A DNA stretch of 17,893 nt from Escherichia phage vB_EcoS-716R1. Below the pieces are notes generated by a model, which was not told the DNA's origin, did no database searches, and saw only the letters and a list, made by a program, of their open reading frames with translations. Of this stretch, positions 15,497-17,893 are shown piece after piece. The position numbers and the translations under genes were made by a program. The DNA lies in sequence record ON470621.1. One strand, written 5' to 3'. Each line of letters starts with the position of its first letter. Position 1 is the stretch's first letter.

Positions 15497-15756
15497 GGTT
15501 CTTTCCACCATCTGAAAAATAATTCTTTAAAATACCAGACATGTAACACAGAAAAAACACAAAACCATACCTTAAATAGAAACCTGATCATCAAGCAGAT
15601 ATGCATGGATAAACTACAAGACGAGATATAAACCACCCTGCATTTAAATAAACAATAAACAACATCAGAAAAATAATTCTGCTCTATGGTTTATATTCAA
15701 AAATATCATTTATACTTTTCAGAACATCACCAGCAAGGCATAAACAAGGAAGCTAA

Positions 15757-16092
15757 ATGAAGTGGATTGTAATTGATACAGTTATCCAGCCATCATGCGG
15801 AATATCTTTTTCAGTCATATGGAGTAAAGTAAAATTAATAATCTGGTATCAATCGGATGCTTTCTTACCTCCTGAAAGTATATTTACACTGACTCACACA
15901 GGTATCATGCTCAATAACAAAGTGCTACCTGTAACCATTTACAACGTAGTACCATTCAATAAAACATTCTGGAATTTAATCAAAAACAGCCAGGAATGCC
16001 CTACAAATACAGATAACGTATTGAATGAATGCTTTAATAACCGTTGCATTCTGCAAATATGTCCTTATGGACTAAAACAACAAAGTCCATAA
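15757..16092 (+). CDS. Hypothetical protein (111 aa) in a low-GC island, opposite strand to the late operon
   Basis: AAGGAAG Shine-Dalgarno 5 nt before the ATG. A 111-codon open frame in very AT-rich DNA is unlikely by chance because stop codons are AT-rich. Cys-containing C-terminus ([16 protein letters not shown]); no recognisable family. Confidence 0.45.
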
Positions 16093-16109
16093 GGAGTTTA
16101 CTCACATCT

Positions 16110-16320
16110 GACAAAATCAATATAAACAGCCCCTCCGGAGAGGGGCTGGAGAGTGGCGCTATGTGCCATTGCATGGTGCCGGGTGCCTCCCGGTGAATTC
16201 AGTACCAGCACCTGAATCCGCGATTATCCCATATACCTACTCGCTGATTACCCCTCCGCACAGGGGGATTCACCATGCGAAATTTTTTAACAAACTTCCC
16301 GCCGGCCAGACAATAATCGC
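16110..16320 (-). repeat. Copy 1 of a ~200-bp structured repeat unit (candidate sRNA gene with promoter-like box and intrinsic terminator)
   Basis: Shares with copy 2 the blocks GCATGGTGAATCCCCCT, ATTCAG...CTGAAT stem, ACCGGGAGGC.CC.GGCACCATGC, and an identical hairpin AGCCCCTCTCCGGAGGGGCT followed by a T-rich run (minus sense). Upstream conserved TTGTCTGG...TTTGTTAAAAA box. Confidence 0.6.
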
Positions 16321-16584
16321 CAGCCTGAATTATGAGCAACGTGGCATTTTACGGGAAAACTGTTTTCTGCAGTAAAAAGGCCCGCCGGAGCGAGCCTGGA
16401 AGGATAGCGGTCATGTGATGCCGGTTTCCCGGTAACTCAGCATCGGTATCTGAGTCAACGTTTTCTCTACTGGGTCATTTCCGATACGTTCCGCCTTCCG
16501 GCAGACTTTCATCACGTCAGAAAATATAGCACCCTGAGTAACAGGACAGTACTCAGAATTCAGGAAACTGTGACACATCCTGCA

Positions 16585-16790
16585 CAGAAAAGCCCCTCCG
16601 GAGAGGGGCTGAAGTATAGCCTAATTTCTGTCTGTCGCATGGTGCCAGGGGCCTCCCGGTAAATTCAGCCTGTCTACTGAATTTGCATGTTCTCTGGATC
16701 ATACACTTTGCCAGATGCCCCGCCGCTGAGGGGGATTCACCATGCGATGTAATTTTTAACAAATTCTCCGGCAGCCAGACAATCATCAAG
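16585..16790 (-). repeat. Copy 2 of the same structured repeat unit
   Basis: Same conserved blocks and the identical 20-nt hairpin as copy 1. The internal region diverges with indels, while the ATTCAG/CTGAAT stem is kept with a different loop. Confidence 0.6.
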
Positions 16791-16967
16791 CTGTGGAATT
16801 GTGAGGTATTTAAAAATTTCAACGGGTAACTGATACCCTGCTAATCGCCTGATGCTTTCTTTTTCAGCAACGGGAAAGCAACAACCACACACCCGCCACC
16901 AAAACACCATCAGACAGCACCGACATTATCCGGCTGCTGAAGTCCACCATCACCACCAGAAACAACA

Positions 16968-17025
16968 GGAGTGCAACCACAGCTGCTTAGAAGGCAATTG
17001 CTCTGCCCGGCTGAGCTAACAACGC
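16968..17025 (-). other. Degenerate tRNA-Arg(UCU)-like remnant (D-arm and anticodon arm only)
   Basis: Minus sense TTAGCTCAGCCGGGCAGAGCAATTGCCTTCTAAGCAGC resembles the 5' half of an argU-type tRNA (GCTC/GAGC D-stem, CTTCTAA anticodon loop). No T-arm and no complementary acceptor 3' strand follow. Confidence 0.3.
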
Positions 17026-17125
17026 TGAATACCGATAATGGACCGCCATCGGGGACCCGCCCCCGCACCAACAACCCTGTTATCGTGTCGTCTGCTCTTC
17101 CTGATAAGCTAATGGCGGTTTGTGA

Positions 17126-17201
17126 TGGTGGCCCTTGCTGGATTTGAACCAGCGACCTGGCGATTATGAGTCGCTCGCTCTCACCACTGAGCTAAAGGGC
17201 C
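17126..17201 (-). tRNA. tRNA with CAU anticodon, most like the minor isoleucine tRNA (ileX/ileZ type)
   Basis: Minus sense GGCCCTTTAGCTCAGTGGTGAGAGCGAGCGACTCATAATCGCCAGGTCGCTGGTTCAAATCCAGCAAGGGCCACCA folds as a cloverleaf (7-bp acceptor GGCCCTT/AAGGGCC, GCTC/GAGC D-stem, GCTGG/CCAGC T-stem, encoded CCA). Overall similarity is to E. coli ileX rather than to a Met tRNA, judged from memory. Confidence 0.8.
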
Positions 17202-17237
17202 GGGAGTAGAATAATAACGGTCCGTAATTAATTCCGC

Positions 17238-17262
17238 AATAAAAAACCCGCTCGGCGGCGGG
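17238..17262 (-). terminator. tR'-like intrinsic terminator downstream of the late promoter
   Basis: Minus sense CCCGC-CGCCGA-GCGGG followed by TTTTTTATTG, about 50-70 nt downstream of the pR'-like promoter. Confidence 0.6.
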
Positions 17263-17311
17263 TTGTAGAAACTCTTCTAACGTCAGGCATAAAAAGCCCA
17301 TTATTATGACG

Positions 17312-17339
17312 AATTTACCACAGATTCCGGAAAAATCAA
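17312..17339 (-). promoter_or_regulatory. pR'-like late promoter (Q-dependent late transcription start region)
   Basis: Minus sense TTGATT, 16-nt spacer, TAAATT, immediately downstream of the Q stop codon. Lambda pR' has the same TAAATT -10 hexamer and the same placement. Confidence 0.6.
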
Positions 17340-17344
17340 CCTTG

Positions 17345-17893
17345 TTACCTAGTTACCTTTTTTAACTGCCGCTCAGCCCATGCTTCTTCAATATCAAACC
17401 GGGTCACCAGCGCATCATAGAATTTCTTAACTGTTTTTTCCCATGACGCGCGTGTTATCTGGTTTGTCACCTCGCATATAGCATTAAATGTCTCCGTTGA
17501 TGGTAGTCTTTCATAGCCACGACCACCACAACGCTGGCAGTCTCTGATAACAGGCATACCACGTTTTACCGACTCTTCACGATGAATGGCGACACCACGC
17601 CCACGGCAATCCTTACAGGCGGTGGAAACCTCACCCTTTCCGCCACACTCCGGACAGGCAACTTTTACCACCTCCCTGACTTTTTTCCATTCTTCCCAGT
17701 AAGACGAATACACACCTTTCGTACACTTTGCCCATACCGGCGGCTTACCATCCGGATACTGGACCTTGTTTGTAAAAACTACGCTTTCAATAAATTTTTC
17801 CCCATAGCAACAAGGGCACTGCTTTTTACTCGCTGCGCTGCGGGCATAATCCTCAAAAGCGTACGAATGCGTATTTTCATGAAAGGAGATCAC
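17345..17893 (-). CDS. Q: Late antiterminator Q (lambda Q family); 5' end beyond the window
   Basis: The C-terminal two thirds align with lambda Q (YAFEDYARSAAS, zinc-finger cysteines CPECGGKG...CKDCRGRG...CQRCGGRGYERLP, WEKTVKKFYDALV, ending KVTR). The ORF is open to the window edge at 17893, so the N-terminus is missing. Confidence 0.85.
   Translation of the reverse strand: MISFHENTHSYAFEDYARSAASKKQCPCCYGEKFIESVVFTNKVQYPDGKPPVWAKCTKGVYSSYWEEWKKVREVVKVACPECGGKGEVSTACKDCRGRGVAIHREESVKRGMPVIRDCQRCGGRGYERLPSTETFNAICEVTNQITRASWEKTVKKFYDALVTRFDIEEAWAERQLKKVTR

Follow-up and report, generated by a model that had tools for sequence, protein, structure and literature searches.

A tandem array of three STnc100-family small RNA genes at the Q-to-lysis site of a lambdoid prophage

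STnc100 and related RNAs of lambdoid prophages

Small RNA (sRNA) genes have been described at the Q-to-lysis site of lambdoid prophages (PMC4104026, PMC7873438). Among them is the STnc100 group (Rfam RF02076, curated gathering score 47 bits), which includes EcOnc05, EcOnc06 and EcOnc27/sRNA103 of E. coli O157, with PasD1 and PasD2 as more distant members or relatives. In E. coli O157 Sakai, EcOnc05 was crosslinked to Hfq, with a CRAC peak that spans helix P3 to the linker as these elements are defined below, and appeared on Northern blots as an RNA of ~222 nt (PMC4104026 supplement). All 11 of the 11 STnc100 copies of strain EDL933 had RNA-seq reads and one, STnc100_4, was Northern-positive; ribosome coverage was high for several copies, with values up to 3.2, and 0.04-0.24 for others (PMC5331693). 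Overexpression of sRNA103/EcOnc27 affects fimZ and espA without an established mechanism, and a statistical association with disease outcome is reported for variants of the STnc100 copy that lies downstream of stx2 (PMC12711010). The literature reports no validated target for any STnc100 member.

Two further groups are relevant for comparison. PasD1 and PasD2 of EPEC E2348/69 (Pearl Mizrahi et al. 2021; Zhu, Shabalina and Storz, 2026 preprint) are Hfq-dependent and Hfq-stabilised RNAs that form RIL-seq chimeras with many mRNAs and carry a predicted seed, UGUGAG, in their 3′ linker. AsxR and AgvB (RF02703, RF02702) occupy the same prophage niche, bind Hfq and convergently abut STnc100 units in EHEC phages, but are unrelated to these units in sequence, are 51-60 nt long and lie on the opposite strand.

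Three tandem units between Q and the lysis genes

The window, by which we mean the whole 17,893-nt stretch of DNA that was analysed, contains three STnc100-family sRNA genes at 16118-16775, arranged in tandem on the minus strand with a period of ~230-240 nt. They are located between the Q antiterminator gene with its tRNA and the holin and lysozyme genes, on the strand of late transcription; as annotated for the identical region of E. coli M217, the order runs Q, tRNA-Ile, DUF3927, the units and, farther on, holin and lysozyme. The convergent neighbour of the array is an iraM-like CDS (15757-16092), and neighbouring tRNA-Arg genes are decayed. Each cassette consists of an upstream block of ~65 nt, a 5′ domain of ~105 nt, a linker of 15-26 nt and an intrinsic terminator, with the following features.

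16798-16803, minus strand: CACAAT box upstream of unit A, within the TCACAATTC block and conserved in most upstream types; alternative candidate -10
16754-16782, minus strand: promoter-like box of unit A, read from the sequence (TTGTCT at 16777-16782, 17 nt, TTAAAA at 16754-16759)
16582-16775, minus strand: unit A, full-length STnc100-family sRNA gene, the copy closest to Q (RF02076, 138 bits, E 7e-31, model positions 1-206)
16637-16745, minus strand: structured 5′ domain of unit A, with closing helix P1, P2, variable P3, P4 and P5 (86.9 bits on our domain model R1; covariation)
16611-16636, minus strand: linker of unit A, GACAGACAGAAAUUAGGCUAUACUUC, candidate seed and Hfq-contact region, largely unpaired in the minimum free energy fold
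16586-16610, minus strand: intrinsic terminator of unit A, stem-loop at 16591-16610 followed by UUUUC (terminator scan; repeat family D1)
16523-16531, minus strand: extended -10-like motif of unit B, TGCTATATT, read from the sequence at the position equivalent to the box of A and C
16371-16546, minus strand: unit B, diverged STnc100-like sRNA gene between A and C (RF02076, 30 bits, E 4e-4)
16413-16517, minus strand: structured domain of unit B, with P1, P2, P4 and P5 (fold)
16373-16397, minus strand: intrinsic terminator of unit B, AGGCUCGCUCCGGCGGGCCU followed by UUUUU, stem-loop at 16378-16397 (terminator scan)
16329-16334, minus strand: CATAAT box upstream of unit C, alternative candidate -10 that would give an RNA of ~200 nt (sequence; conservation)
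16285-16313, minus strand: promoter-like box of unit C, read from the sequence (TTGTCT at 16308-16313, 17 nt, TTAAAA at 16285-16290)
16118-16306, minus strand: unit C, full-length STnc100-family sRNA gene (RF02076, 132.5 bits, E 2e-29, model positions 1-206)
16171-16278, minus strand: structured 5′ domain of unit C, with P1 to P5 (115.2 bits on R1)
16149-16170, minus strand: linker of unit C, AAUGGCACAUAGCGCCACUCUC, folding into a small hairpin with a C/U-rich tail; candidate seed
16122-16148, minus strand: intrinsic terminator of unit C, CAGCCCCUCUCCGGAGGGGCUG (terminator scan)

The initial annotation had described units A and C as a pair of candidate prophage sRNAs on the minus strand and had called for a Rfam search, folding of both copies and a covariation analysis of homologues. 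Both units are real, and the search placed them above the STnc100 threshold with E-values of 1e-29 to 1e-31; the count, however, is three, the diverged unit B having been overlooked. The sRNA reading was right, and as the family is already catalogued the word "candidate" undersells it. We regard it as nearly certain that the segment consists of STnc100-family sRNA genes; the element is an ordinary one and the finding is already known. The same annotation placed the copies in the Q-to-S segment, where Shiga-toxin phages carry sRNAs and toxin cargo. The Q-to-lysis position stands; the host prophage is a non-Stx lambdoid one whose units occupy the Q-to-lysis "moron" site, and it carries no stx gene. 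It differs from the O157 copies also in its convergent partner: no anti-sRNA gene of the AsxR/AgvB type abuts the units on the opposite strand in the window, where the iraM-like gene is convergent instead, and a Rfam search of the window gave no AsxR or AgvB match even at E-values up to 5. Convergent STnc100/AsxR and STnc100/AgvB pairs were observed directly in relatives.

Units A and C are full-length STnc100 members with the common fold, terminator and Q-to-lysis position. Unit C differs by one base from the EcOnc05 locus of Sakai prophage Sp4, from GCATGG in P1 to the terminator stem, and matches the EcOnc05 Northern probe at 35 of 35 positions (16215-16249); the Hfq crosslinking and Northern detection of this close homologue support the sRNA reading. 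Unit A has a variant form of the linker found in the Stx2-phage copy, the target of the EcOnc27 probe. Unit B, at 30 bits, falls short of the gathering score, and differs from STnc100 in that the conserved P2 and P5 loops are replaced by GNRA-type loops; a UTI89 variant of it, ~86% identical, scores 30.1 bits. The trio is present at ≥99% identity in 341 E. coli genomes, and unit B was found in 673 of 5426 complete E. coli genomes. The three RNA genes are unannotated in RefSeq genomes, except for a partial pseudo-CDS over unit C, and deposited GenBank phage records label the trio "hypothetical protein".

A covarying domain, its 3′ modules and its 5′ end

The three units have a common fold in which P1 encloses P2, a variable P3, P4 and P5, followed by the linker and intrinsic terminator. 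Single-sequence folding gave -68 kcal/mol and a z-score of -3.7 for unit A and a z-score of -3.1 for unit C, with a shared shape, and unit B folded alone into the same architecture (z -2.95). The repeats are not due to chance, given their Rfam E-values and folding z-scores of -3.1 to -3.7. The structural elements first noticed in A and C were all recovered, namely an identical 20-nt terminator hairpin (AGCCCCTCTCCGGAGGGGCT, at 16128-16147 and 16591-16610), an outer helix of GCAUGGUG with CACCAUGC (plus-strand positions 16171-16178/16271-16278 and 16637-16644/16738-16745) and an inner AUUCAG/CUGAAU stem whose loops differ between the copies. P4 is AAAUUCAG/CUGAAUUU in unit A and GGAUUCAG/CUGAAUUC in unit C; P5 is CCGGG-AGGCC-CCUGG and CCGGG-AGGCA-CCCGG, respectively, and P2 of unit C is CCCCU-GUGCGG-AGGGG. 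The helices of unit B are P1 GUGAUG/CAUCAC, P2 CUGCC-GGAA-GGCGG, P4 ACUCAG/CUGAGU and P5 CCGG-GAAA-CCGG, with GNRA-type loops capping both P2 and P5. Its P1 and P4 show compensatory changes relative to the canonical units, and P2 differs between the window and UTI89 on one side of its pairs only, with pairing maintained.

Covariation among homologues supports this structure. In a MAFFT alignment of 27 domains, 94% of cells were paired and 11 pairs were changed on both sides, as against 3.7 in shuffles, while slid controls were only 37-48% paired. In a model-based alignment of 52 distinct sequences, 95.3% of cells were paired and 18 of 26 pairs were changed on both sides, including all eight pairs of P4. 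P1, P2 and P4 are thus backed by covariation, P5 is mostly invariant, and several unpaired positions of the domain are highly conserved. RNAalifold, run on the MAFFT alignment, proposed a long-range fold that pairs the 5′ arm of P2 with the 5′ arm of P5; we did not adopt it, because the four-helix structure is 94-95% paired and its double changes greatly outnumber those of slid or shuffled controls, and because the proposed pairing is impossible in the dicB and kilR leaders described below. A loop-loop contact between P2 and P5 was likewise dropped, as the loop changes in unit A and in a relative (L114) are uncoupled.

Relatives exchange upstream, domain and 3′ modules as a mosaic: 70 unique units comprise 11 upstream, 12 domain and 15 3′-module types in 22 domain-3′ combinations, and linkers are exchanged as cassettes, in many cases with retention of the terminator stem. 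In the window the linkers are predicted to be largely unpaired in all three units and differ in sequence from unit to unit; by analogy with PasD, that of unit A is a candidate seed. The unit C terminator has a weak U-tract with interruptions (UUUAUAUU), a point against strong termination and against Hfq binding at the 3′ end.

The comparison with PasD delimits what is shared. Its 5′ end, P1, P2 and P4 are homologous to those of the units, as is its promoter region (TTGACT, 17 nt, TTAAAA) to the window boxes, and a DUF3927 gene precedes both. PasD scores 38-41 bits on the STnc100 model, below threshold; it has no P5, a different and longer linker bearing the UGUGAG seed, and a different terminator. 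Neither the PasD probe sequence nor the seed is present in units A, B or C, and by alignment the homology is restricted to the 5′ domain. Unit B was considered as a PasD homologue and rejected, since it retains P5 and has a different linker and terminator.

The 5′ end of the RNAs can be placed in two ways, both of which fit the sequence. The TTGTCT-17-TTAAAA box is indeed located upstream of both A and C, as initially proposed, and the region is conserved family-wide; it may act as a promoter. In unit A it overlaps an extended -10-like motif (TGnTAAAAA), and in unit B the equivalent motif, TGCTATATT, is invariant between the window and UTI89, with diverged sequence farther upstream. A consensus promoter scan did not pick up the box, since position 6 of its -10 is not T. 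The box is homologous to the promoter region of PasD, for which RNA-seq puts the 5′ end at GCAUGG, where the outer helix begins with its first base. The alternative is the upstream CA(C/T)AAT box, from which unit A would yield an RNA of ~205 nt. Northern sizes of EcOnc05 (~222 nt) and EcOnc27 (~235/247 nt) exceed by 50-70 nt what a P1 start would give, and the promoter-like box may therefore lie inside the transcript in this upstream type; these homologue sizes suggest a start 45-65 nt farther upstream, near the CA(C/T)AAT box. EcOnc13, of which PasD is said to be a homologue, was set aside as evidence on the 5′ end, as the probe listed in the supplement of Tree et al. mismatches the PasD-like locus of Sakai Sp3 and matches the upstream leader of another unit type.

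Unannotated copies of the four-helix domain are also present in the dicF-dicB intergenic region and ahead of kilR in Qin-like and Rac-like prophages. In these leaders compensatory changes maintain the helices, and P5 retains its AGGCA loop; the Rfam STnc100 model gives a local match of 38.8 bits to the domain only. The leaders have no terminator or linker of their own and lie in a cis context, inside the mRNA ~30 nt before the start codon, and in K-12 the P1 of the leader domain extends with its flanks to a duplex of ~25 bp. We tentatively raise the possibility, which we consider less likely than not to hold, that the domain is an autonomous RNA module used in two lambdoid-phage settings, late sRNA cassettes and terminator-less dicB/kilR leaders after DicF. 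As a leader it could act on processing, stability or translation, or serve to bind a factor.

Possible roles of the array

Our preferred explanation is that the Q-to-lysis site carries three trans-acting sRNA cassettes, to which we assign a probability of roughly 0.75; this figure covers the whole statement, identity and role together. The conserved upstream block of ~65 nt would carry the promoter of each cassette, and the RNAs would base-pair in trans through linkers that differ between the units, so that their targets would differ too, with the 5′ domain as a body that confers stability or binds a factor. A further possible role of the three terminators is to help silence the lysis genes until Q-modified polymerase reads through. 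Published work shows that lysogens transcribe close homologues as discrete RNAs, which crosslink to Hfq. That base pairing in trans is the main role we hold to be only slightly better than an even bet: a domain of ~105 nt with covarying helices and conserved unpaired positions exceeds what a typical Hfq sRNA needs, and its occurrence as a terminator-less mRNA leader means that base pairing may not be its primary role.

One may postulate instead that the array acts in cis, its three terminators insulating the lysis cassette and making it strictly Q-dependent, the domain serving the late transcript as a module for processing or stability and the discrete RNAs being by-products. Three strong terminator-like hairpins are indeed oriented with late transcription, where ~2 would be expected by chance in the region, the terminator-less domain precedes dicB, kilR and a P7 gene by ~30 nt as a leader, and the lack of a validated STnc100 target would be accounted for. 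We nevertheless consider this scenario unlikely. Without induction, lysogens already accumulate homologues in the form of discrete RNAs bound to Hfq, the RIL-seq chimeras of PasD are specific, a single terminator would suffice for insulation, and the swapping of linkers around an often retained terminator stem is the pattern expected if the linker carries specificity. Rather less probable still is that the RNAs are anti-sRNAs that titrate core-genome sRNAs in the manner of AsxR and AgvB, rather than regulators of mRNAs. The genomic niche is common to both, with convergent partners in EHEC prophages, and Hfq binding of the homologues is compatible with such a role; however, the window has no AsxR or AgvB match, the known anti-sRNAs are short (51-60 nt) and unrelated in sequence, and the RIL-seq partners of PasD are mostly mRNAs.

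Two further readings deny the units a role as regulatory RNAs. That they are functionless repeats left by lambdoid phage recombination is disfavoured and, in our estimate, highly improbable: the region is highly mosaic, the adjoining tRNA-Arg genes are decayed and the U-tract of unit C is weak, but 95% of cells remain paired, with numerous double changes, the trio persists nearly unchanged in hundreds of E. coli genomes, unit B is kept as a ~86% variant too, and homologues are expressed. Least probable of all is that the units encode peptides, whether from an AUG in the 5′ arm of P1 (MVNPP...), from a second one in the 3′ arm, behind the GGAGG of P5, or from the antisense "hypothetical protein" ORFs. 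ORFs of 14-89 codons do overlap the units, the GenBank phage records call the trio hypothetical proteins, and several EDL933 copies have high ribosome coverage (up to 3.2). Other EDL933 copies, however, have coverage of only 0.04-0.24, and the sense ORFs vary in length and sequence among units or pass the terminator without a stop. The longest ORFs are on opposite strands, as had been pointed out, plus over unit C (16163-16375) and minus over unit A (16553-16822). A Pfam search gave no match for any of the ORFs that cover the units. Domain lengths among relatives range from 99 to 129 nt and differ by non-multiples of three between conserved flanks (remainders modulo 3 of 13/8/6), and substitutions across the helices are compensatory. 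On the basis of length variation, compensatory changes and the Pfam result we rejected these small ORFs as genes, and the covarying helices and domain lengths agree with the original reading of an RNA under structural selection and not a protein gene.

For the window itself, the sRNA cassettes matter mainly as annotation, and unit B is of a kind that escapes Rfam-based pipelines. STnc100 is among the most abundant sRNA families of enterobacterial genomes and is without an established function, and its modular build, which joins a constant structured domain to upstream and linker-terminator modules that can be exchanged, suggests a way in which phages generate diversity among regulatory RNAs. 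The link to the dicB/kilR leaders provides a new handle on the role of the domain. If the domain is indeed an autonomous module, the units in the window would exemplify one use of an undescribed cis-acting element that ~85% of complete E. coli genomes possess, with unit B standing for a subfamily of its own within that element, one that scores below threshold.

Three tandem STnc100 units and their shared fold

Scanning the window against Rfam returned full-length matches to RF02076, the model of STnc100 (gathering score 47), at both copies that the initial annotation had described, while a permissive scan recovered a diverged third unit that its count of two had missed.

Units of the array, with their RF02076 matches
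16582-16775, minus strand: unit A, full-length, 138 bits, E 7e-31
16371-16546, minus strand: unit B, 30 bits, E 4e-4, permissive scan, below the gathering score
16378-16397: terminator of unit B, its own hairpin
16118-16306, minus strand: unit C, full-length, 132.5 bits, E 2e-29

The three units repeat with a period of ~230-240 nt. The array is an already known family, STnc100, plus one unlisted diverged member, unit B, and we put the probability that the units are STnc100-family sRNA genes at about 95%. The sequence features described earlier for A and C were all located in both copies: an identical 20-nt terminator hairpin, an outer helix GCAUGGUG/CACCAUGC, an inner stem AUUCAG/CUGAAU with differing loops, and an upstream TTGTCT-17 nt-TTAAAA box; the proposed element length of ~200 bp is reasonable with either 5' end considered below.

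Folded alone, A, B and C share one architecture, in which P2, a variable P3, P4 and P5 lie inside the closing helix P1 (single-sequence z-scores of -3.7, -3.1 and -2.95); all three continue with 15-26 nt of unpaired linker and then the terminator. Unit B retains each helix with other letters than A and C.

Helices of unit B
P1: GUGAUG/CAUCAC
P2: CUGCC-GGAA-GGCGG
P4: ACUCAG/CUGAGU
P5: CCGG-GAAA-CCGG

Relatives were gathered by scanning viral contigs with a 16-mer of the 5' end and extracting the units, and 27 diverse domains were aligned. In this MAFFT alignment the four-helix structure paired 94% of cells, with 11 both-side pair changes against 3.7 in shuffles and seven of the eight P4 pairs changed on both sides; when partners were slid by 1-3 columns as a control, pairing dropped to 37-48%. 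Searching 100 sources with a covariance model of the domain gave 126 matches, and the 52 distinct sequences showed 95.3% of cells paired and double changes in 18 of 26 pairs, in an alignment that is fitted to the domain model itself. In most sequences, P1 and P2 have their 5' arms fixed by the seed pattern. Members without the seed pattern were also recovered by the model search. Both alignments contain the compensatory base-pair changes expected of the structured RNA initially proposed. An alternative fold suggested by RNAalifold for the MAFFT alignment was rejected, as the four-helix structure pairs 94-95% of cells with far more double changes than the controls, and the alternative pairing is not possible in the dicB and kilR leaders described below.

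The earlier view that the element is not a protein gene was borne out: domain lengths among relatives range over 99-129 nt (remainders modulo 3 of 13/8/6), the sense ORFs either differ between units or read through the terminator without a stop, and a Pfam search of all ORFs overlapping the units gave zero matches. No codon-periodic conservation was seen among the relatives.

Published relatives and the 5' end

E. coli O157 EDL933 has 11 STnc100 copies, all with RNA-seq reads and one confirmed by Northern blot, and ribosome coverage differs widely between them (PMC5331693). In eight Sakai prophages, Hfq-crosslinked sRNAs occupy conserved positions downstream of PR', often as convergent dyads whose antisense partner is the anti-sRNA AsxR or AgvB (Tree et al., PMC4104026). 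Judging from the Northern probes of that study, STnc100 units include EcOnc05, EcOnc06 and EcOnc27. The probe for EcOnc05 matches unit C at 35/35 positions (16215-16249), and its Sakai Sp4 locus is one base off unit C from GCATGG to the terminator stem; the Hfq-CRAC interval of EcOnc05 spans P3 to the linker (PMC4104026). The EcOnc27 probe lies on the P1 3' arm and linker of the Stx2-phage copy, a variant of whose linker is the linker of unit A. We saw AsxR and AgvB directly adjoining STnc100 matches convergently in relatives; neither matched in the window in standard or permissive Rfam scans, and the anti-sRNA place of EHEC prophages is here taken by an iraM-like gene.

PasD1 and PasD2, two Hfq-stabilised EPEC RNAs 172-173 nt long, have RIL-seq chimeras that map to the 3' part and a predicted seed UGUGAG (PMC8550237). 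A common structure, and probably a common ancestor, of PasD and STnc100 has been reported (2026 preprint, 10.64898/2026.05.13.724894), and PasD scores of 38-41 bits on RF02076 reproduce this kinship; PasD keeps P1, P2 and P4 as in STnc100 but lacks P5.

The promoter-like box noted earlier is real, and its homologue in PasD is the promoter region TTGACT-17 nt-TTAAAA, for which RNA-seq puts the 5' end at the first P1 base (PMC8550237); however, a consensus promoter scan did not call it, and the Northern sizes of homologues are too long for such a start. As the span from P1 to terminator is only 155-171 nt, versus ~222 nt for EcOnc05 and ~235/247 nt for EcOnc27 (PMC4104026), units that have the conserved block TCACAATTCAG upstream, A and C among them, may by analogy start 45-65 nt further upstream. 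The RF02076 model itself starts 30 nt ahead of P1. At the box position, TGnTAAAAA occurs in many relatives; unit B has TGCTATATT there, a motif unchanged in UTI89 relative to the window despite diverged sequence further upstream.

Prophage setting, mosaicism and possible roles

Many non-STEC E. coli chromosomes, that of strain M217 among them, match positions 15700-17350 with 100% identity. The RefSeq annotation of M217 assigns the array to a lambdoid prophage and, within it, to the late region, which is transcribed on the window minus strand. The array lies between Q/tRNA and the holin/lysozyme genes in that annotation, in agreement with the Q-to-lysis location first suggested.

Genes around the array
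17345 onward, minus-strand late region: antitermination protein Q (RefSeq annotation in M217)
17126-17201: tRNA with anticodon CAT, Met by ARAGORN, Ile by PGAP
16864-16980: small DUF3927 gene, between tRNA and array
15757-16092, plus strand: iraM-like gene, convergent, beyond the array on the lysis side

Past the iraM-like gene, the M217 annotation continues with holin, lysozyme, a spanin-type lysis protein and iss. It contains no RNA feature over the array; all that it shows there is a partial pseudo-CDS overlapping unit C. GenBank phage records ON470607, ON470612 and ON470619, which are 100% identical to 16100-16830, present the array as two or three "hypothetical protein" CDSs; these, like the pseudo-CDS in RefSeq E. 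coli, are probably mis-annotated RNA genes.

Several observations concern the flanks. Just downstream of Q, a strong minus-strand terminator, AACCCGCCGCCGAGCGGGUU then UUUUUAUU (17245-17264, within 17238-17344), sits where tR' and the short PR' transcript are located; in Stx phages that transcript is the StxS sRNA. The Rfam match in this place, to Trp_leader, is weak and at chance level. The UTI89 prophage has a tRNA-Ile, tRNA-Arg, tRNA-Arg cluster to which positions 16984-17220 show 88.7% identity, and in the window both tRNA-Arg genes appear decayed, because the CAT tRNA is the sole one still found there by ARAGORN and Rfam. It is probably of the lysidine-modified ileZ type, which is known in Stx phages. 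The iraM-like anti-adapter gene, convergent to unit C and with its own hairpin (16062-16095), takes its name from PGAP, and a Pfam search gave no match; it is possibly RpoS-stabilising cargo adjoining the array. Elsewhere, a phage contig (L065, 1321-1954) carries three tandem STnc100 units, all above threshold, and another contig (L057, 372-633) a unit followed by a tRNA with zero gap; arrays and tRNA adjacency therefore recur at the prophage site.

Among 70 unique units we distinguished 11 upstream, 12 domain and 15 linker-plus-terminator types; domains and 3' modules form 22 combinations, in which the domain type of unit C is joined to six 3' modules. Two variants of unit B (>=99% and ~86% identical) together account for its presence in 673 of 5426 complete E. 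coli genomes, and in both arrangements examined unit B is flanked by two canonical units, which differ: the order is A-B-C in the window and C-type, B, another type in UTI89. Mosaicism and the arrangements of unit B fit cassette exchange at shared P1/P5 and terminator sequences, and the mosaic pattern also fits a linker that carries target specificity.

By analogy with homologues, for which lysogen transcription, own termination and Hfq binding have been shown, the array would comprise three autonomous sRNA cassettes transcribed in the lysogen, each ending at its own terminator and yielding an Hfq-bound sRNA. A, B and C would then act in trans through their differing linkers, with stability or a binding surface supplied by the structured domain; we lean slightly towards trans base pairing as their main role. 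In the literature, proposals for STnc100 such as pairing with stxB are unvalidated predictions, and effects on fimZ/espA are reported from overexpression only. From what terminators downstream of PR' are known to do, the three in the array should in addition keep transcription from running on into the lysis genes before Q acts.

The same domain upstream of dicB and kilR

The domain model and RF02076 also match outside any late region, in the DicF-dicB intergenic region, where the RF02076 match (38.8 bits, E 8e-7) is confined to model positions 21-154, the domain without the terminator.

Leader copies and their helices
E. coli K-12 MG1655 (L133, NC_000913.3), 456-581: STnc100 four-helix domain, dicF-dicB intergenic
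Comparison sequence L096, 4762-4887: four-helix domain without terminator
Comparison sequences L127-L132: four-helix domain without terminator
Leader P1: AUGCGGUG/CACCGCAU
Leader P4: GGCGUUAA/UUAACGUC or GACUGUAA/UUGCAGUC
Leader P5: CCUGG-AGGCA-CCAGG

These helices differ from those of late-region units by compensatory changes. The start codon of kilR or Kil (in Rac-like phages), dicB or a P7 gene follows ~30 nt after the domain. At the dicB and kil loci, though not in P7, a DicF-like terminator precedes the domain by ~15 nt. In K-12, P1 and its flanks form a predicted ~25 bp duplex reaching the dicB Shine-Dalgarno region (z -4.4). The 161-nt dicF-dicB region is present in 4633 of 5426 E. coli genomes, with almost no annotated feature beneath it among the matches listed, and we found no description of the dicF-dicB/kilR domain in the searchable literature. 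Its presence without a terminator in the dicB, kilR/Kil and P7 leaders suggests, from sequence comparison, that the four-helix domain is an independent module.
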